Assembly (NCBI GenBank): GCA_044223505.1
Contig: JBGALX010000012.1
Span: forward strand, 90,174-154,173
DNA from: Myxococcaceae bacterium
GTDB taxonomy: Bacteria > Myxococcota > Myxococcia > Myxococcales > Myxococcaceae
DNA: 64,000 nt
Reading direction: 5' to 3'
The notes under the pieces are model-generated. The model made no database searches. It was not told the origin of the DNA and saw nothing but the letters and a program-made list of their open reading frames with translations. Below are positions 7,999-56,518 of this stretch, in pieces. Made by a program: the position numbers and the translations under genes. Position 1 is the stretch's first letter. Every line of letters starts with the position of its first letter.

Positions 7999-8068
7999 GG
8001 GGCCGCATTCCGCTGCCGGGCCGCCCAGAACGCAAGCTCAGGCGTTGCCGATGAGCCCTTCGCGCTCG
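7985..8068. repeat. Direct repeat copy 1 (about 84 bp, about 94% identical to 8849-8933) flanking the TA cassette.
   Basis: GGGGGCGGTCATGGGGCCGCATTCCGCTGCCGGGCCGCCCAGAACGCAAGCTCAGGCGTTGCCGATGAGCCCTTCGCGCTCG. It contains the real start codon of the oxidoreductase gene and an unused copy of the ...EREGLIGNA* C-terminus of the upstream hypothetical gene at 8903-9370. Confidence 0.85.
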
Positions 8069-8138
8069 AGCACTGGAAGCCATCGTGACGTAGGCGGCAG
8101 TGGCACTGGTCGGTTGCCTCGCACGGAGCCTGTTGTCT

Positions 8139-8157
8139 TTGTATGCTCTGTCATACA
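8139..8157 (+). promoter_or_regulatory. Candidate antitoxin operator: inverted repeat TGTATG-N6-CATACA just upstream of the ParD Shine-Dalgarno sequence.
   Basis: A 6-bp perfect inverted repeat in an AT-richer stretch (ctttgtatgctctgtcatacaggagatacaacaATG). An AGGAGA Shine-Dalgarno lies 9 nt before the ATG. Confidence 0.4.
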
Positions 8158-8169
8158 GGAGATACAACA

Positions 8170-8433
8170 ATGGCATCTAGCGACGTGCTGACAGTTCGCC
8201 TGCCGGCCCCCGTGCGAAAGCGGCTCGACGCACTCGCGAAGTCGACTGCTCGGAGCAGGTCATGGCTGACGGTCGACGCGATTGAGAAGTACCTGCAGGA
8301 CAATGAGTGGCAGCTCCGGGCCATCGAGGAGGGTCTGGCTGACTCGAGGCGCGGGCGTCTCGTCGACCATGAAGAGGTGGAGGCCTGGCTCGAGACGTGG
8401 GGGCGCAAAGGGAGCAGAAGGCGCGCGCGATGA
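8170..8433 (+). CDS. parD: ParD/CopG-family ribbon-helix-helix antitoxin (type II TA).
   Basis: MASSDVLTVRLPAPVRKRLDALAKSTARSRSWLTVDAIEKYLQDNEWQLRAIEEGLADSRRGRL... Lower GC than its surroundings. The stop overlaps the toxin start (ATGA). Confidence 0.8.
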   Translation: MASSDVLTVRLPAPVRKRLDALAKSTARSRSWLTVDAIEKYLQDNEWQLRAIEEGLADSRRGRLVDHEEVEAWLETWGRKGSRRRAR

Positions 8434-8714
8434 GGGTGCGGTGGTCGTTCGCTGCAAAGCGGGATCTCGTCGAGCTGCATGACTTTCACACCGATGAGCC
8501 GCAGCTCGCGCGGCGCGCTGCACGGGCGATCATCGACGCGGTGCGGTTGTTGCGGGCGAGCCCCGGGCTGGGTCGTCCCGGCCGGTTTCCCGGTACACGC
8601 GAGCTGATGATCCCGCGAGTCGGCTACGTGATTCCGTACACGATCGTCAGGGGCGAGCTGCACCTGCTGCGGCTGCTGCGTTCCGGCGTTCCGTGGCCCG
8701 ACAGCCTCGACTGA
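8430..8714 (+). CDS. parE: ParE/RelE-family toxin (type II TA).
   Basis: MRVRWSFAAKRDLVELHDF...IPRVGYVIPYTIVRGELHLLRLLRSGVPWPD. It has a 4-nt overlap with parD. Confidence 0.8.
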   Translation: MRVRWSFAAKRDLVELHDFHTDEPQLARRAARAIIDAVRLLRASPGLGRPGRFPGTRELMIPRVGYVIPYTIVRGELHLLRLLRSGVPWPDSLD

Positions 8715-8848
8715 GGCCCGGTATGAAAGTCGCGTTCCAGCACAGGAGCGCAGTGACGAGAACCCGGTAATGGAACGCGCCTTGCCAGCACGGCTGCCCG
8801 ATGCCGACCTTCGGCGTCACCGGGCGACCCTACAACGAAGCCGGCGCG

Positions 8849-8933
8849 TCGGGAGCGGTCATGGGCCCGCCATTCCGCTGCCGGCCCGCCTAGAACGCAA
8901 GCTCAGGCGTTGCCGATGAGCCCTTCGCGCTCG
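8849..8933. repeat. Direct repeat copy 2 of the TA-flanking repeat.
   Basis: Carries the real stop of the gene at 8903-9370 (…EREGLIGNA*) and a dead start MTAPDAPASL*, where the copy 1 reading MTAPEWKTT... opens the oxidoreductase. Confidence 0.85.
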
Positions 8934-28583: not shown

Positions 28584-29405
28584 TCAGCTCTTGAGCAGCT
28601 CGCTGACCGAGGCCTCGAACTGCGAGCGCATCACGGCGATGAGGCTGTCGAGCTCGCTGTCGGCGACGTCGAGCTTCGAGCGCAGCTGCCTTCGCGTCTC
28701 GCTGAACATGAACTGGCGAGCGGCGGTGAGCCAGCGCGACACGGTGATGCGGTGCACGCCCATCATCTGGCCGATGCGGTCGGTGGTGTACCGGCCGGCG
28801 TGGCACAGGCGCATGGCCTGGCGCTGCTCTGCGGGCAGCAGCTTGAAGGCGTCGCGCAGGGCCTCGCGGAAGGGGCCGCGCAGCTGCTCACGCACGAGCT
28901 GCAGGTCGACGTCGTTCGACTCGACGAGGGCGTCGAGCGCCGACTCGTCGACGTTCGAGCGCTTCGTCTCGGAGGCGCCGCGGCGCAGGTTCAGGGCGCT
29001 GCGCACCGAGGTGACGCGCACGAATGAGAGCAGAGAGCCGAGGCCGCCGTACTCGGCGATCTTCGGCTCGCCGTCGCCGGGCATGAGCAGCCGCACGCGC
29101 ACGGCCTGGGCCACCTCGGCGGCGAACGAGGGCTGGGGGTCGATGTGGCGAATGAAGTGGGGCACCTGCACGAGAATCGAGGCGTCGAACGCGGCGTGGG
29201 CCGCCTCGACTCCGCGCGCGCAGGCACACGCGAGGTAGAGGTCGGCGCCCGAGAGCTTCGCGAGCTGATCTGCGCTCGCGCAGTGCCGCTTCACGTGCTT
29301 CGCGAACGTCGCCTCGTCGAGCTCCACGCCGGGCCAGGTGTCGCAGCCGAGCTGCCAAAGCTCGGCGATGCGTGCCGTCACTTCGTCATCGGCGAGTCCG
29401 CTCAC
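28584..29405 (-). CDS. ECF-type sigma-70 family sigma factor (paralog of 22339-23142).
   Basis: Shared motifs: EVTA..., DLYLACACARG and a C-terminal region-4 helix-turn-helix. The C-terminal tail ...SQFEASVSELLKS is like the paralog's ...SFDLSLSRALRSQ. A GTG start was chosen by alignment to the paralog; the start is uncertain. Confidence 0.65.
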   Translation of the reverse strand: MSGLADDEVTARIAELWQLGCDTWPGVELDEATFAKHVKRHCASADQLAKLSGADLYLACACARGVEAAHAAFDASILVQVPHFIRHIDPQPSFAAEVAQAVRVRLLMPGDGEPKIAEYGGLGSLLSFVRVTSVRSALNLRRGASETKRSNVDESALDALVESNDVDLQLVREQLRGPFREALRDAFKLLPAEQRQAMRLCHAGRYTTDRIGQMMGVHRITVSRWLTAARQFMFSETRRQLRSKLDVADSELDSLIAVMRSQFEASVSELLKS

Positions 29406-29544
29406 GGGCGCCGACCCTACCGCATCGGCTGCACGACCGTCCCACGGCAATGACGAGCCGGGTGCAGGCCGCGCAGGCCAACAGGTGCTGCGCGACCTGG
29501 CGCTGCTGGGCGGCGGTGAGGTGACCGTCGATGAAGCGATGCAT
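29386..29544 (-). CDS. Mini-ORF (52 aa) carrying a zf-HC2 anti-sigma-factor zinc-finger motif. Possibly a truncated anti-sigma factor remnant.
   Basis: MHRFIDGHLTAAQQRQVAQHLLACAACTRLV fits the ..DG.L....R.....HL..C..C anti-sigma consensus. GC3 is high through the motif, then coding signal collapses. The ORF ends 20 nt inside the predicted sigma start. Confidence 0.4.
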   Translation of the reverse strand: MHRFIDGHLTAAQQRQVAQHLLACAACTRLVIAVGRSCSRCGRVGARERTRR

Positions 29545-29594
29545 GGTGCAGTCATCGGGGCAGCCGTCCAGCAGGGTGGACTGCGCCCCGGCGT

Positions 29595-29963
29595 TCACCG
29601 AAGGCCTGCCGCGCCGCCGGCGGCTCCGGCGAAGAAGCCGATGACCATCGCGATGATCTGAATCGTGTACGCGGTGTTGAGCTTCTTCAGCGCGACCATC
29701 ATGTGCCCGAGGTCGTTGCCTTTGGTGTCGACGATCGACTTGAAGGCGCCCGCGACGCCGAGAATCGTGATGCCCATCACGAGGGTCACCGGCCCGCTGA
29801 CGAGGTTGAGCAGCGCGATGAAGCCTCCGCGGGGGAGCAGCAGCACGCCGATGAGCGAGCTGAACGCTCCCGACACGATGGCCATGATCGACCACACCTT
29901 CGCGCGGCTGCCGGTCGCCGCAATCGTCGCGTTCTCCACGTCGCTGAATTCGTACTGGCTCAT
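29595..29963 (-). CDS. Membrane protein (122 aa, 3-4 TM helices), unknown function.
   Basis: MSQYEFSDVENATIAATGSRAKVWSIMAIVSGAFSSLIGVLLL... An AAGAGAG Shine-Dalgarno lies upstream of the ATG. Confidence 0.6.
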   Translation of the reverse strand: MSQYEFSDVENATIAATGSRAKVWSIMAIVSGAFSSLIGVLLLPRGGFIALLNLVSGPVTLVMGITILGVAGAFKSIVDTKGNDLGHMMVALKKLNTAYTIQIIAMVIGFFAGAAGGAAGLR

Positions 29964-39997: not shown

Positions 39998-40822
39998 ATG
40001 GAGCCGCTCAACCTGAAAGGCCGCTACACCCTCGTCACCGGCGCCTCGGCCGGCCTCGGGCGCGAGATGGCCAAAGAGATCGCGAAGGCCCACGGCGGCA
40101 ACCTCGTGCTCGTCGCCCGCCGCAGAGAGCGCCTCGAAGAGCTCGCCCGAGAGGTCGAGGCCCACGGCGTCAAGGCCGCCTGCATCGCCGCCGACTTGTC
40201 GAAGCCCGACGACGTCGAGCGCGTGTTCCGCGAGTCGACCGACGGCCGCGACATCTACGCCGCCATCTTGAACGCCGGAGTCACCTACTTCGGCCACCAC
40301 CTCGAGCTGCCGCGCTCCGAGGCGCAGGCGCTGCTCGCCACCAACCTCTACAGCGTGCTCGAGCTCAGCCAGAGCTTCCTGCAGCACCAGCTCGCGAAGG
40401 CGCCCGGCGGCGGCGTCATGGTCGTGAGCTCGGTCGCCGGCACGATGCCGACGCCGTACCAGGCGCTCTACTCGGGCACGAAGGCGTTCTTGAACACGTG
40501 GGGCGTCGCGCTCGCCGAAGAGCTGCGGGGAAAAGACGTGTCGTTCACCGTCTTCGCGCCCGGCGGCATCGCGACCGAGATGGGCGAGAAGTCGGGCACC
40601 GCCCGCAAGTTCAAGAAGGGCGACGTCGGCATGATGGACGCCGACGTCTGCGCCCGCGCCGCGCTGTCGGCGTTCATTCGCCGAAAGCGCTGGGTCGTGC
40701 CCGGCGCGCTGAACGTGCTGAACGGCCTCTTGATGCGCTTCGTGCCGACGGCCACGCAGGCGTCGGTGGTCGCGGGGCTGTTCAAGAGCGCGGTGCTGCC
40801 CGCGGGCCAGAAGCAGGGCTAG
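39998..40822 (+). CDS. SDR-family oxidoreductase.
   Basis: TLVTGASAGLGREMA, NAG and YSGTKAF catalytic motif. Confidence 0.9.
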   Translation: MEPLNLKGRYTLVTGASAGLGREMAKEIAKAHGGNLVLVARRRERLEELAREVEAHGVKAACIAADLSKPDDVERVFRESTDGRDIYAAILNAGVTYFGHHLELPRSEAQALLATNLYSVLELSQSFLQHQLAKAPGGGVMVVSSVAGTMPTPYQALYSGTKAFLNTWGVALAEELRGKDVSFTVFAPGGIATEMGEKSGTARKFKKGDVGMMDADVCARAALSAFIRRKRWVVPGALNVLNGLLMRFVPTATQASVVAGLFKSAVLPAGQKQG

Positions 40823-41024: not shown

Positions 41025-42845
<1,821 letters not shown>

Positions 42846-42965
42846 CGGGGTCCTCCCCTTACCCTCGGTGTGGTGCGCGCGTCGATGGGGGACCCCGGCC
42901 AGCGTCTCGAACACGCGCCGCCGGCCATCAGCCTGATCTACCGAACCTCAAGGTACTCAGGCCCG

Positions 42966-43489
42966 ATGGCGGGAAGCCAAGCCGCGTGCGCCGTGAGCGT
43001 GAAGCGGCTGTCTGCCTGCGCGATGCTCATCTGGCTCGCGGCCTGCTCGAGCGACAAGCGACCGCCCGACCACCCGGTCACTCCCGAGAATCACCCCTTC
43101 TTCCCCATCACGCCGGGGGCCGTTCACGAGCTCGGCAGGGTAACGGCCGGCGCGGCCATGAGCTGCGAGTCGTGCCACCCCGCGAGCAGCGAGTCGTTCA
43201 CCGACATCGTCTGCCTCGACTGCCACACGCACCGAAGGGCGTGACCGACCGCCTGCACCAGACGACCGCCGACTACGCCTACGAGAGCAAGGCCTGCTAC
43301 CGCTGCCACCCCGCCTCCGACCACCCGCCGTACGACCACGCGGGCGCTGGCCCTCGCGCAGCCGACCTCGGGCTGCAACGCACCACCTACGCGCAGCGCT
43401 GGCGCTTCAAGCACCCGAGCGAGAACACGCAGAACGTCACGTGCTGCATGTGCCACGACCAGAAGTCACCGGGCGTCTGCAAGAACTGA
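42966..43489 (+). CDS. Tetraheme c-type cytochrome lipoprotein, interrupted by an apparent -1 frameshift near 43235.
   Basis: MAGSQAACAVSVKRLSACAMLIWLAACSS lipobox. The first frame carries SCESCHP and CLDCHTH. The frame then shifts after CACACGCACC(C)GAAGG, a likely C homopolymer. The second frame carries ACYRCHP and CCMCHDQ, with high GC3 in each frame only on its own side of the shift. The track splits this gene across the tails of two junk ORFs. Confidence 0.55.
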
Positions 43490-43514
43490 CCGGCGCAGGC
43501 TAAAAGCGCCCGGC

Positions 43515-45140
<1,626 letters not shown>

Positions 45141-45205
45141 GCGACCGGCTTCACTTCACCGCGCGCTCGACGACGTCGATGTACAGGCTGTCGGGGTAGC
45201 GGGCC

Positions 45206-45514
45206 TTGAACGCCGCCGCGCGCGGTCGCGTCGGCCTTGCGCCCGAGGCGAGCGAGCGCCTGAATCGCGGCGCGCCACAGGCGGCACGTGCACGGCGTCG
45301 GGCGGCGAGTGCCGGAGCGAGCTGCACGCTCACCGCCGACGTCGACTACCCGTGCCGGCCCGACCTGTACTGCACGGCCACGACGGCGAGCCCGTCGGGC
45401 ACCTGCGCGCCGAAGAAGCCGCGCGCTGCGAGCTGTGCCTCGCCCGTCGGTTGCCTGAGCGCGCAGTGCGTGATGGGCAGCTGCACGGCGCCGACGTACT
45501 GCTACGTGCCGTGA
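45206..45514 (+). pseudogene. Fragment of a small Dickkopf-N-like Cys-rich secreted protein (C-terminal part, upstream part frameshifted).
   Basis: ...SCTLTADVDYPCRPDLYCTATTASPSGTCAPKKPRAASCASPVGCLSAQCVMGSCTAPTYCYVP*. A second frame just upstream reads GGTCTASGGECRSE with high GC3. No intact N-terminus or signal peptide was found. Confidence 0.3.
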
Positions 45515-45515
45515 G

Positions 45516-49488: not shown

Positions 49489-50304
49489 TCAGCGCGCTGT
49501 GGCCACGGACCCTTCGTACTCGTCGTCGTACTGGCGCGGGTACGTGCGGGGCCAGACGATGCGCTCGAACGGCTGCACGGCGAGCGTCAGCACGCCCTCG
49601 AAGCCGCGCGGGCCGTACAGCGCGGGCGTGAGGGCGGTGAGCTCGAAGTAGACGAGCTGCATCGTGAAGCGAGCGCCGAGGGCTCCGCGGAGCTGCTGGC
49701 CGTGGCCCGCGGTCGCGCGCAGCTCGGCGGTGAACGAGAGGAAGCGCCACGGCGCGACGCTGAGCCCGCTCGTCACGTCGACGGCCGTGCCGAAGAGCCA
49801 CGCCCCGTCTTCGCTTCGCTCGTAGAAGCCGGGCGTGACGGCGACGCGCGCGTGCACCGCGGCGTAGCGAAAGGCGAGCAGCCCGTCGACGCCGAGCGAG
49901 CCGCCGGCGCGGCGCGAGGTGCCGAACGCCGGCAGCAGCGCCTGGAGGTCGAAGCCCACCGCGAGGTGCTCGGGCTCGAGCGGCGCCTGCCACGCGACGC
50001 CGAAGCGCACGGGGCCCGGCTGCTCGAAGCTCACGAACGCCTCGGCGCGCTTGCGTGAGCGCCACGAGACGAACGCGCCGCCGCCGTAGGCGAGGTGCTG
50101 CTCGACGGCGCCGGTGACCGCGGCCTCGGTGCGCAGGCACGCGCGGTGGGCGCCGCTCGCGCGCAGGGGGCCGTAGAGCTCGGGCGGCGTCTCACCCTCG
50201 AAGCACGGAGCGCCGTCGTCGAGGAAGTCGTCTTCGAGCGCGAGCGCAGTGCTCGAGACGATGACTGCGAGCACGACAGCGCCGCGGGTCACGGGCTTCT
50301 TCAC
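49489..50304 (-). CDS. Exported hypothetical protein, possibly a beta-barrel outer-membrane protein.
   Basis: Signal peptide MKKPVTRGAVVLAVIVSSTALA. Alternating hydrophobic beta-strand-like pattern. Confidence 0.6.
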   Translation of the reverse strand: MKKPVTRGAVVLAVIVSSTALALEDDFLDDGAPCFEGETPPELYGPLRASGAHRACLRTEAAVTGAVEQHLAYGGGAFVSWRSRKRAEAFVSFEQPGPVRFGVAWQAPLEPEHLAVGFDLQALLPAFGTSRRAGGSLGVDGLLAFRYAAVHARVAVTPGFYERSEDGAWLFGTAVDVTSGLSVAPWRFLSFTAELRATAGHGQQLRGALGARFTMQLVYFELTALTPALYGPRGFEGVLTLAVQPFERIVWPRTYPRQYDDEYEGSVATAR

Positions 50305-52867: not shown

Positions 52868-55800
52868 CTACTTCCACTTGCCGTTGCCGAAGGTGCCGGC
52901 GACGGGCGGGGTGAGCTTCTCTCGGCCGCCGGTGCCGGCGTGGCACGAGGTGCAGTCTTCACCGGCGGTCGACCCCTCGTGGTTGCCGATGCGCTCCTGG
53001 TTGGCGCTCGGGTGGGTGATGGTCAGGCTGGCGTTGGTGGTCGTCGCGGTCGCGGCGCTCGAGATGGTGAAGCTCGTGGCGTTGGTGATGGTCCTGATGG
53101 TGATGGTGCCGGCGGGAATGGGGGTGCCGGTGATTCGCATACCGACCGCCAGATCCGCCGTCGAGGCGGTCGTCACCGTGGTGCTGCCCGACGTGGTCGA
53201 CGCGACGAGGGCGAGCGGCCCGCTGCTGACCAGGTACGGGCTGCCGGTGTTGTGGCACATCACGCAGTACGTCGGGTTGGTGCTCGCGTTGTAGAGCGTG
53301 CTGCCGAGGTTCGGCGAAGCGGCCACCCCGTTGATGGTCACGTTCGTCGTGAGGCCCGCATGGTTGTAGTTGGAGATCTTCGCGTAGTTCACGCCGGGGT
53401 GGCACTGCGCGCAGCTCGTGTAGGTATTGGCTGGCGGGTGGGCGAGGGTGATGGTGAGCGAGGTGATGTTCGAGCCCGACGTCCACGGGCCGAGCGTGAT
53501 GGTCGCGGGTGCGCCGGTGGCGCCCTTCCAGTTCGGCGCCGACGAGGTGCCGGTGCCCGGCCAGCTGTGACAGCTCGCGCAGTCTTGGCTGCCGGGAGTG
53601 CTCGTGAAGCCCGAGTGATTGTATTTGAACTGTGGCCCCGGCTTCACGTTCAGGTGGCAGTTGCTGCACCGCCCGTTCACGCCATCGCTCACGAGCGGGT
53701 TGCTGCCGGTGAACCGGGTGTGGAACCTCGCCTGCGCCCACTCGACGCCCATGACGCCGGCGACCGTCGAGGGCCCGCTCTGGGTATGGCAGAAGTTGCA
53801 GTCGTGGCCCGTCACGTTCACGTCGGCGTGCGTGATTTGGTCGTGTGTGCCCGGCGGCACGCCGCTGTCGGGCGTCGACGGCACCGTCGAGAGCGTCGCG
53901 CTGTCGATGAGCCCGGCGGGCAGGTTGTTCCTCGTGCCCACGACGTTGCCGCCGCCGTTCGTCAGGCCGTGGCACTCGCGGCAGGTCGTGGCCGTCGTCA
54001 CCGAGGCGTGGAAGGGGGCGCTCTTGCTCCATGCGCTGCCCGTGGCCTTGGCGTCGGCCCGGTGGCAGACCACACAGTCTTTGCCGATGACGAGGGGCGA
54101 GCCGTGGTTCATCCACTGGGCGCCGTTCGTGGCGGTGCCGCCCTGCGCGAGCGAGTAGGTCACGCTGCTCTGCGTCGAGGCGTTCGCGGCGGGCAGCGTC
54201 ACCTGGTGGCACGACACGCAGGTGGCAGGCTGGCTCGCACCGAAGCTCGAGTGCAGGGCGCCGCCGCTCCATCGCGTCGAGACCGGAGTCTGCGTCGCCA
54301 TGCCCAGCGCGCCCGAGTGGCACGTCTGGCACGCCTGAGTCGTCATCTCGGGCGCTCGGTGCTGCATGCGGTAGCGCATCATCAGCGTCAGGTCTGCCTG
54401 AGCGGCGCTCGCCATCAGCGGGTAGTGGCAGCTCACGCACTCGCTCGGCTGCTCGGCGCCGATTCGGGTGTGGAAGGTGCCGTCGGCCCAGCTGGTGCCG
54501 GGGGTGCCCCGGTGACAGGTCGAGCAGTCGAGCCCCGTCACGCCCGAGTCGGAAGCGAAGCGGGCGTGGTGGTCCATCGGGAGCAGCGTCGAGCTCATGC
54601 GCTCGACGATGCCCGGAGCCAGCATCTGGTTGTGACAGTCGAGGCACTGGCCGTTGGGCTGCGGCAGCCCCGCATCGGTGACCGCGAGGTGGAAGACGCC
54701 GTCGGCGTAGCCGCCCGGCTTGTGGCACAGCGGGCACCTCGACGTGTCGGGGTTCGAGCCGCCGTCAGACGAGCCCGGCCGCATCGAGAGGGGTATCGCC
54801 GTCGAAGCGTGCAGCATGCCCTGGTACAGCGGCACGTTCGTCGTCGACATCGACGTCACGAGGTTCAGCGGCCCAGAGCGGTTGAGCGTGATGTTGCTCA
54901 CGGTGATGAACCGACTCGTCGAGCTGATGAAGCTCGCCGGGTACGGCTCGCCGCCGGCCCAGTCGCTCAAGGCCTGGTAGCGGTTCGCGGTGACCGTCGC
55001 CTGGTGGCAGCCGAAGCAGTCGCCCGTGCCGTCGGTCGCGTGGTTGAAGGCCGGTGGGGCTCCGACGGGCATCGTCGGCCGCTGGCTCACGTGACACGAG
55101 ATGCAGCGCACGGCCGAGGGCGTGTTGGGGCCGTGCTGGAAGTCGCCGCCCACCCAGTTCGGAGTCCCGCCCCACATGCCGGTGCCCGGGCCCTTGTGGC
55201 AGAGCGCGCAGTCTTGACCGTCTCCGTGCGTGTTGCCGGAGCTGTTCGTGCCGTAGTCGAACGGCCGGCTGGTGTAGGTGGTGCTCAGCCACTGGGTGGT
55301 GTCGGTCGGGCGCCGCCCGTCGTGACACGGCAAGCAGGTGGCGGGCGTGGCCGAGCCCGCCAGGTGGAACCTGCCGCCCGCCCAGCCGGTGCCGTCGAGC
55401 GCGCTCGCGTTGAAGTGGCACGTCTTGCAGTCGGCGAGGGCGCTGGGCTCCTGGTGGTCGAACTTGAGGCCGTTCGGCTGGCTGACGATGGCGGTGGGGC
55501 GCGAGTTCGCGTGGCAGTCGAGACACGAGTCGACCCTCGCCGTCAGCGAGGGGTGGAACTTCGCCGGCGCCGCGCCGGTCTTGCCGTCGACCCACGTGGC
55601 CGCGCGGGCCGCGCTCGGCGCCTGGTGGCACAGCGAGCAGTCTTGCGGCACCAGCCCGGTCATCGTCGGAGCCCCGCTCGCCCACGCGACCGCTTCGTGC
55701 CTCATCTCGCCCGACGCCGGGTCGCGGCCGGGCGGGCTGACCAGCGGGCCGACGAACCCGCGGGGCTGCGTCGCGACGTGGCAGTCGGTGCAGCCGCTGA

Positions 55801-56518
55801 CGGTCACGCCCAGGGTCACGAGCGAGCTGTGGAGCTCGCCCGGGTAGTAGCCGCCGAGGGCGGCGTCGACGTGGCAGGCCTCGCAGGTCGCCAGGGTCGC
55901 CGCTGGAACCTGGGTCGAGCTGTGGTTCATCACCTGCTTGAGGCTCTGCTGATCAGGCGTCAGGCTGATGATCGACTGCCCCGACCAGGTCGGCACCAGC
56001 CCGGTGACCTGCACGTCACGGCTCGGGTCGCTCGAGTCGCTCGGCGCGCCGGTCGCGTCTTTCCAGGTCTGCGTGTTGTGGCAACCGCCGCACCCCGACG
56101 TGCCCATCGGCCGGTGCGTGAAGCCCGGGATCGGCAGCGCGGCGAACGGGGCGTCGACGTCGTGGCAGGTCGCGCACTCGCTCGACACGACGCCGGTGTG
56201 TGAGAACGGCATCTGTTCGCCGGTGGGGTGGCAGGTGAAGCACGTTCGCTCACCGAAGGTGTAGTCGCCGACGCCCTTGTGCAGCAGGCTCGAGATGCCT
56301 TGATCATGAATGTGGCAGCTGACGCAGGTGAAGTCTTTGAAGCTCTCGGCCGCCGGAGGGTGACAGGCGTCGCACCCGCTCAGCTTCGCGAGGTCGTGGT
56401 TGGTGCCCGCAACGATGGGGAAGTAGACGTGCCCCTCGGGCGTCAGGCCCTGGCCGGTGCCTTTTCCTCCGGGCGTACATGCGGCTGTGGCGACGACGGC
56501 GAGCGTCAGCAGGCGCAT
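52868..56518 (-). CDS. Giant multiheme c-type cytochrome lipoprotein (about 28 CxxCH motifs).
   Basis: MRLLTLAVVATAAC lipobox. 28 CxxCH heme-binding motifs counted across 1216 aa (CDACH, CVSCH, CFTCH, CATCH, CGGCH ... CVMCH, CTSCH). Thr/Ser/Gly-rich linkers sit between them. Confidence 0.9.
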   Translation of the reverse strand: MRLLTLAVVATAACTPGGKGTGQGLTPEGHVYFPIVAGTNHDLAKLSGCDACHPPAAESFKDFTCVSCHIHDQGISSLLHKGVGDYTFGERTCFTCHPTGEQMPFSHTGVVSSECATCHDVDAPFAALPIPGFTHRPMGTSGCGGCHNTQTWKDATGAPSDSSDPSRDVQVTGLVPTWSGQSIISLTPDQQSLKQVMNHSSTQVPAATLATCEACHVDAALGGYYPGELHSSLVTLGVTVSGCTDCHVATQPRGFVGPLVSPPGRDPASGEMRHEAVAWASGAPTMTGLVPQDCSLCHQAPSAARAATWVDGKTGAAPAKFHPSLTARVDSCLDCHANSRPTAIVSQPNGLKFDHQEPSALADCKTCHFNASALDGTGWAGGRFHLAGSATPATCLPCHDGRRPTDTTQWLSTTYTSRPFDYGTNSSGNTHGDGQDCALCHKGPGTGMWGGTPNWVGGDFQHGPNTPSAVRCISCHVSQRPTMPVGAPPAFNHATDGTGDCFGCHQATVTANRYQALSDWAGGEPYPASFISSTSRFITVSNITLNRSGPLNLVTSMSTTNVPLYQGMLHASTAIPLSMRPGSSDGGSNPDTSRCPLCHKPGGYADGVFHLAVTDAGLPQPNGQCLDCHNQMLAPGIVERMSSTLLPMDHHARFASDSGVTGLDCSTCHRGTPGTSWADGTFHTRIGAEQPSECVSCHYPLMASAAQADLTLMMRYRMQHRAPEMTTQACQTCHSGALGMATQTPVSTRWSGGALHSSFGASQPATCVSCHQVTLPAANASTQSSVTYSLAQGGTATNGAQWMNHGSPLVIGKDCVVCHRADAKATGSAWSKSAPFHASVTTATTCRECHGLTNGGGNVVGTRNNLPAGLIDSATLSTVPSTPDSGVPPGTHDQITHADVNVTGHDCNFCHTQSGPSTVAGVMGVEWAQARFHTRFTGSNPLVSDGVNGRCSNCHLNVKPGPQFKYNHSGFTSTPGSQDCASCHSWPGTGTSSAPNWKGATGAPATITLGPWTSGSNITSLTITLAHPPANTYTSCAQCHPGVNYAKISNYNHAGLTTNVTINGVAASPNLGSTLYNASTNPTYCVMCHNTGSPYLVSSGPLALVASTTSGSTTVTTASTADLAVGMRITGTPIPAGTITIRTITNATSFTISSAATATTTNASLTITHPSANQERIGNHEGSTAGEDCTSCHAGTGGREKLTPPVAGTFGNGKWK

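Follow-up and report, generated by a model that had tools for sequence, protein, structure and literature searches.

Here, we present an analysis of a hidden cytochrome gene and its surroundings in a 64-kb stretch of DNA from a Myxococcaceae bacterium (the whole stretch that was analyzed is referred to as the window). Read from its sequence, 42966-43489 (+) is one gene for a lipoprotein multiheme cytochrome c of ~174 aa when repaired. A genuine 1-nt deletion has probably turned this gene into a pseudogene, which lies beside a decaying rearrangement scar; for the 2.3-kb stretch as a whole, real gene decay and rearrangement are the best reading. The value of this result is mainly for annotation: gene callers give a 92-aa and an 82-aa ORF, both small and meaningless, together with a 541-aa "DUF2330" protein that has a junk tail. 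The two small ORFs should be labeled as a single frameshifted cytochrome c pseudogene, and the DUF2330 gene as one to which the remnant of another gene is fused. Moreover, frame breaks can cluster in a high-GC genome for reasons other than sequencing errors; in this window, they appear to mark a decay zone beside a lineage-specific segment. Biologically, the feature is ordinary, i.e., a divergent, frameshifted gene for a protein of a known kind, with a small decay zone beside it. The uncharacterized family of lipoprotein multiheme cytochromes to which a 28-heme protein 10 kb away also belongs gains one divergent, apparently inactivated member.

A cytochrome gene read in two frames

We traced reading frames over the entire 64-kb window using a sliding GC3 table together with a seven-state frame HMM. 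The G+C content of the window is 71% and, therefore, GC3 follows the reading frame well. A 723-aa ORF at 41073..43244 (+) runs antisense to a MopE/PKD gene at 41025..42914 (-) and is merely its shadow; the in-frame tail of this ORF, from the ATG at 42966, is the N-terminal half of the cytochrome. The first-pass annotation had proposed that this tail and the tail of a second ORF together make up one hidden gene, and the ORFs, GC3, and the homologs all bear this out. The gene is read in frame 0 up to ~43233 (GC3 of 0.91) and in the -1 frame, i.e., frame 2, from there to the stop at 43487-89 (GC3 of 0.94). The coordinates of all features are collected in Table 1.

Table 1. Coordinates of the features in and around the decay zone (positions are those of the window)
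Feature	Position	Strand	Remarks
Segment absent from the relative L001	40823..43514 (2.7 kb)		MopE/PKD/LTD gene (-) and cytochrome gene (+)
5' half of the cytochrome	42966..43244	+	92-aa ORF, identical to P0006
Frame-break interval	43233..43240	+	8 nt, CGAAGGGC; homologs have 9 nt (3 codons)
3' half of the cytochrome	43241..43489	+	82-aa ORF, identical to P0007
DUF2330 gene	43515..44903	+	Essentially full length; homology to the L001 ortholog over 463 codons (83% identity)
Delta-60-repeat-like putative 3' remnant	44904..45140	+	Fused to DUF2330; unrelated gene
TPR-like putative 3' remnant	45151..45285	-	...LWRAAIQALARLGRKADATAR / AAFKARYPDSLYIDVVERAVK, stop at 45151-53
Cys-rich putative C-terminal remnant, Dickkopf_N-like	45300..45514	+	10 Cys in 63 aa; no signal peptide

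From the ATG at 42966, the N terminus reads MAGSQAACAVSVKRLSACAMLIWLAAC SSD... and comprises a basic K/R n-region, a hydrophobic core, and the lipobox L-A-A-C (Cys codon at 43044-46); as judged from the sequence pattern, the position of this export signal is conserved among homologs. The 5' half further contains a conserved NHPFFPI, CxxCH 1 (CESCH at 43164), and CxxCH 2 (CLDCH at 43212), and the ORF terminates with ...CHTHRRA at the TGA at 43242-44. Past the break, frame 2 contributes ...VTDRLHQTTADYAYESKACYRCH...TCCMCHDQKSPGVCKN up to the stop; this half opens with VTDRLH..., carries CxxCH 3 (CYRCH at 43295) and CxxCH 4 (CCMCH at 43442), and closes with the conserved tail ...AQRWRFKHPSENTQNVTCCMCHDQKSPGVCKN. 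The lipoprotein signal and the four CxxCH motifs that had been noticed earlier are, thus, all present. Four CxxCH in 174 aa compare with 0.0014 expected from the window background. In a six-frame count, the window has 33 CxxCH, of which 4 are in this gene, 28 in one large cytochrome gene, and 1 elsewhere.

The simplest reading of the lesion is a 1-nt deletion, which would have left the 8 nt CGAAGGGC where 9 nt are expected. A single base inserted anywhere in 43233-43240 exactly restores the conserved spacing. We aligned the repaired window cytochrome with 11 homologs (12 sequences; alignment A2), and the distance from CH-x-H to [VIL]-[TS]-D-R-L-H is exactly 3 residues in 11/11 homologs, matching the +1-nt repair. 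All 11 of these full-length homologs cross the break gap-free, and the 28-heme paralog in the window also aligns ungapped over it (CLDCHTHPKGVTDRLH versus CVSCHIHDQGISSLLH; 34% identity, E=1e-28). Hence, the continuous similarity across 43230-43240 that had been suggested as a check was looked for and found in the HMMER matches, in alignment A2, and in the in-window paralog. Homologs that are continuous over a break and a spacing that is restored by a 1-nt change are what is seen in a frameshift pseudogene, and the likeness to such pseudogenes miscalled as two overlapping ORFs extends to the single-base indel, the two ORFs that cover one homolog, and the chance GTGA overlap.

This overlap (GTG at 43241, TGA at 43242) has a form that is common at genuine operon junctions in the window, and it leads gene callers to split the gene into ORFs of 92 and 82 aa (P0006 and P0007), with the start of P0007 placed at the GTG at 43241. 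We consider it very unlikely that these are two real, translationally coupled genes encoding two diheme polypeptides that act together, as the GTGA junction at 43241-44 and the two gene calls could suggest. First, the GTG at 43241 is not a start codon, as judged from the aligned homologs, all of which have the conserved internal [VIL] of VTDRLH at this position, and the tail RRA of the first ORF stands in place of conserved residues. Second, among the homologs none naturally ends at the break; one (P0139) stops nearby and is cut by the end of its contig. Third, cytochrome c maturation is periplasmic, and the 82-aa ORF on its own has no signal peptide; consequently, its product would not reach the heme-attachment machinery and could not work alone.

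Programmed -1 ribosomal frameshifting or transcriptional slippage could in principle give a full-length protein from the interrupted gene, given that the shift needed is -1 and that both halves look fully functional. Reading the sequence directly, we found no X XXY YYZ slippery heptamer in 43224-43244, and CACACGCACCGAAGGGCGTGA contains no long homopolymer that would permit slippage; moreover, none of the homologs needs a shift, and we know of no precedent for programmed frameshifting in this cytochrome family. Of the explanations considered here, we regard recoding as the least likely, and an extremely improbable one.

Returning to the deletion, we propose the following. The intact cytochrome would be exported by Sec, cleaved between LAA and C and lipidated at this Cys, and receive its hemes at the CxxCH motifs in the periplasm; with bis-His ligation by His43, His54, His89, His98, His125, and His150, it could then shuttle electrons at the membrane. 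Upon loss of a single base within 43233-43240, translation from the ATG at 42966 would halt at 43242 after two hemes, and the second half would be readable only from an internal Val codon, the GTG at 43241, without a signal peptide. We infer that the gene has lost its function.

The remaining same-strand frame transitions in the 64-kb window are normal stop/start junctions based on the GC3 table and the frame HMM. At 29388-29598 (-), a small ORF lies between two same-frame segments and resembled a double frameshift (-2/-0/-2 pattern at 29.4-29.6 kb). We rejected this candidate; the ORF has a zf-HC2 anti-sigma-like N terminus (...HRFIDGHLTAAQQRQVAQHLLACAAC...) and is flanked by ordinary GTGA junctions. 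The sole CxxCH in the window outside the two cytochrome genes, CMLCH at 8140, is within 8006-8905 (900 nt, GC 0.66), which is noncoding according to the frame HMM, yet has patches of weak codon periodicity.

A family of multiheme lipoproteins, mostly from Myxococcota

Using HMMER against 1.84 billion representatives, we found 334 homologs, many of which matched in a single stretch covering query residues ~15-166; over these residues, the full-length members of the family are 31-52% identical to the window cytochrome. In alignment A2, CxxCH 1-3 and the lipobox are conserved, H89, H98, H125, and H150 are invariant, and H43 and H54 are nearly invariant. These six histidines are candidate sixth ligands for bis-His coordination. 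At E<=0.01, the members of A2 match Cytochrome_C7 (12/12), Cytochrom_c3_2 (11/12), and Cytochrom_CIII (10/12), and homologs match c3/c7-type models at E down to 8e-8. The window cytochrome itself is below the Pfam gathering score (Cytochrome_C7, 16.8 versus 24.8 bits), has 13.1 bits against a cut-off of 40 for nanowire_3heme, and matches no NCBIfam model at cut-off. Its matches to solved structures are weak (best E=1.4e-5; STC 1m1p, E=0.075), and an AlphaFold2 model built on the 12-sequence alignment (pLDDT 51, pTM 0.29) was judged unusable. The best explanation is that the small cytochrome belongs to class III (c3/c7-like) and to an uncurated family found mostly in Myxococcota. Multiheme cytochromes have been reported in Myxococcota such as Anaeromyxobacter (PMC11495043).

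The tetraheme c3 of Desulfovibrio and the triheme c7/PpcA of Geobacter (PF02085, PF14537, and PF14522), i.e., class III cytochromes, are likewise small and dense in CxxCH with extra conserved His residues. However, these proteins are soluble and periplasmic, whereas the window cytochrome is a predicted lipoprotein; in addition, it has an N-terminal NHxWFPI...H.LG motif that is extra relative to them, and its family, unlike class III c3/c7, has 5 hemes in ~150 aa. MtrC/MtrF, the DmsE/MtrA decahemes, and Shewanella STC/CctA are also lipoprotein or periplasmic multiheme carriers; none of these families is matched significantly by the small protein. Giant multiheme cytochromes share the N-terminal NHxWFPI module as their first module, and one of these proteins is encoded at 52868-56518 (-) in the window. 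It is a 1216-aa lipoprotein cytochrome with 28 CxxCH, the first ~150 aa of which are the small cytochrome's module, and it matches Pfam Cytochrome_C7 (1e-29) and domains II/IV of MtrC/MtrF (6e-29), as well as decahem_SO weakly.

The Myxococcota-type module, as present in P0030, P0037, P0042, P0057, and others and at the N terminus of the 28-heme protein, has the lipobox, NHxWFPI, CxxCH 1-3, the HEQSVTDRLH region, DHAG, and F.HP in common with the window copy. By contrast, the window copy is frameshifted, lacks both the fourth CxxCH of the family (CAxCH) and FAALP, which are present in 11/11 aligned homologs, and has a variant C-terminal tail. The label "tetraheme" in the first-pass annotation therefore describes this copy, with its four CxxCH, correctly, but not the family, for which five CxxCH are the rule (11/11 homologs). 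We searched the other frames of 43340-43400 for a hidden CAxCH and rejected this idea; it would need a ~22-nt deletion in addition to shifts, and GC3 stays in frame 2. The C-terminal 35 aa (43382-43486; AQRWRFKH...TCCxCHDQxSPGVCKN before the stop) are 74% identical to the C-terminal end of P0119, a 5'-truncated and unrelated cytochrome from a JGI metagenome (L087 1-561), and this variant tail is shared only with P0119. Given that identity to the rest of the family is only 31-52%, these 35 residues may be a conserved C-terminal cap. That the small cytochrome is a naturally four-heme variant of the module defined by this cap, which the ends of larger cytochromes would also have, with a split that is possibly also tolerated or functional through low-level recoding or as two pieces, seems to us a remote prospect.

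Closer relatives of the gene did not turn up. A metagenome scan with the cytochrome gave distant relatives only (29-37% identity), and tblastn of the cytochrome and the downstream fragments against 79 DUF2330 loci gave no syntenic copies. A word-indexed protein search with the repaired cytochrome returned no matches although both halves are representatives in that collection, and such negatives with short or Cys-rich queries are unreliable. In the searched collections, there is no close relative with an intact ortholog at the break, the best full-length homolog having 52% identity.

Deletion or sequencing error

The first-pass annotation had read the frame changes in this region as sequencing or assembly indels concentrated in homopolymers, rather than as true pseudogenes. 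At the cytochrome break, the longest runs are GGG, AA, and CC; there is no run of more than 3, the indel can be placed anywhere in the 8 nt CGAAGGGC, and the CC singled out earlier is not a tract prone to systematic platform errors. Among all the proposed shifts, only the one at 45028 adjoins a run of at least 4 (CCCC, 45035-38). The concentration in homopolymers is, thus, not supported.

Nevertheless, an error in the consensus deserves attention as the alternative in which the organism carries an intact gene and one base has been lost from the deposited sequence by mistake. The main argument in its favor is that both halves have a perfect codon bias, no stops, all motifs intact, and a strongly conserved C-terminal tail, since these properties are equally expected from a sequencing error in a functional gene. 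Moreover, several frame changes occur within 2.3 kb, as might arise from locally low coverage or poor polishing. If the deletion is genuine, the same properties (GC3 of 0.91-0.94 in both halves, no internal stops, intact motifs, and the conserved C-terminal 35 aa) suggest that the lesion is young.

Four observations argue against an error. First, we used P0006 in an exact-product look-up and retrieved Logan contig L080, which stems from a separate assembly of SRR28480386; its 1085 bp are identical to 42561-43645 of the window, including the break, although it spans none of the other shift sites. Based on this identity, the base would be missing from the reads as well. The contig requires accurate reads that carry the 8-nt version more than once, and an error would therefore have to be present in such reads at least twice; SRR28480386 might be the read set of the deposited assembly, in which case a systematic error would show in both. 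Second, the cytochrome site has no homopolymer longer than 3, as described above. Third, a noisy assembly is hard to reconcile with ~54 kb of further coding sequence in the window that is free of frame breaks; for four random errors to land together in 2.1 kb out of 56 kb, we estimate a chance of ~2e-4. Fourth, the neighboring lesions include whole-gene truncations, which base-calling errors cannot explain. Altogether, the identity of L080, the lack of a long homopolymer, the unbroken ~54 kb, and the clustering estimate favor a genuine 1-nt deletion over an artifact, and we regard an error as unlikely, albeit as the most serious of the alternatives. The earlier preference for indels over true pseudogenes is not supported: L080 keeps the break, the other coding sequence is unbroken, and the other shifts are best read as truncated remnants at a synteny breakpoint.

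The DUF2330 gene and the putative truncated remnants downstream

In the genome collection, the nearest relative is a Myxococcaceae MAG (contig JAEUJP010000191, locus L001), the DUF2330 protein of which is 83% identical to that of the window; the genome scan did not find a genome of the same species, this locus being the top match. Based on tblastx, the window and L001 are collinear. The SDR gene (39953-40822) corresponds to L001 1405-2274 and the DUF2330 gene to L001 2271-3656, and a histidine kinase gene and the gene at 49522-50286 also correspond. In L001, the stop of the SDR gene overlaps with the start of the DUF2330 gene (ATGA, 2268-2274), and the 2.7-kb segment with the MopE-like and cytochrome genes is absent. 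Because the direct SDR-DUF2330 adjacency is seen in L001 only, insertion and deletion of this segment cannot be polarized. After the DUF2330 gene, 4.6 kb in the window stands against 0.7 kb in L001. Around the inserted segments, we found no flanking repeats and no promoter-like or terminator-like sites. Within the MopE-like gene, 42259-42758 (-) consists of ~4 copies of a 144- to 150-nt repeat (Cu-binding_MopE motifs; Pfam, E=2.9e-16).

In the 541-aa ORF, PF10092 matches residues 9-370 (E=1.5e-51, 175.7 bits versus a cut-off of 24.7). The native last ~4 codons and the stop of DUF2330 are replaced, and the ORF runs on to the TGA at 45138-40. The L001 ortholog has 466 aa and ends with ...ELELKTSAKRP, which aligns to ...ELGLTTSGGSKP of the window at ~44915; it stops 4 codons past the last aligned residue, and other homologs of the short type (Myxococcaceae/Archangiaceae-type) stop 0-16 codons past the same point. 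Two frame changes had been placed inside the DUF2330 gene. The GC3 changes are real, at 44903 and 45028, but they lie outside DUF2330, the L001 ortholog of which ends at ~44915. Homologs that end at the shift point had been named as the observation that would count against frameshifts in this gene, and this is what we found at 44915, with tblastx synteny stopping at 44903. The end of the ortholog together with the end of synteny argues that the first "frameshift" is a synteny breakpoint and not an indel within a gene. The breakpoint at 44903 would have removed the last codons and the stop of DUF2330. Most DUF2330 homologs (loci L002-L079) have a C-terminal tail of 40-70 aa in which a GCxC-type Cys motif is combined with a hydrophobic stretch and a run of Arg, and which we take to be MYXO-CTERM-like; this tail is absent from every frame of the window and also from the L001 type.

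Based on phase, composition, and weak family matches, 44904-45515 looks like a patch of three truncated 3' gene remnants, and the family assignments of all three are weak. None of them has an N terminus or a signal peptide. The delta-60-repeat-like piece is read in frame 1 over 44904-45028 (NPYLSIARFTAAGAVDTGFGTSG...) and in frame 0 over 45029-45137 (NRVLISGDRLYY...ALP); the internal shift lies near the CCCC at 45035-38, and the piece ends at the stop at 45138. Its segment ARFTAAGAVDTGFGTSG matches one partial repeat of TIGR02608 (26.6 bits versus a cut-off of 76.5, E=3.9e-6). The TPR-like piece changes frame once, within GC-rich sequence at ~45208-45222, and has weak matches to TPR_14 (E=0.016) and TPR_6 (E=0.042). 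The word-indexed protein search, which also missed known ORFs of the window, returned no homologs of the delta-60-like and Cys-rich fragments.

The Cys-rich piece matches PF04706 (Dickkopf_N) with 21.7-21.9 bits versus a cut-off of 25 (E=2.3-2.7e-4). By base composition, the strand of 45320-45511 is ambiguous, and the family match is found in the plus-strand reading only; a minus-strand reading as additional TPR gave no TPR match and was rejected, and we kept the plus-strand Cys-rich reading with this caveat about the strand. A further shift had been proposed at ~45290 in this fragment. The evidence for it is ambiguous: if real, the shift is at ~45310-45320 between two TGC codons 10 nt apart, and the frame-1 piece upstream of it has no family match. 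We speculate that the layout of the three remnants could stem from two deletions in which a convergent gene pair and a divergent gene pair lost their 5' parts. The stop of the Cys-rich piece, at 45512-14, is 1 nt from the stop of a convergent metallophosphatase gene.
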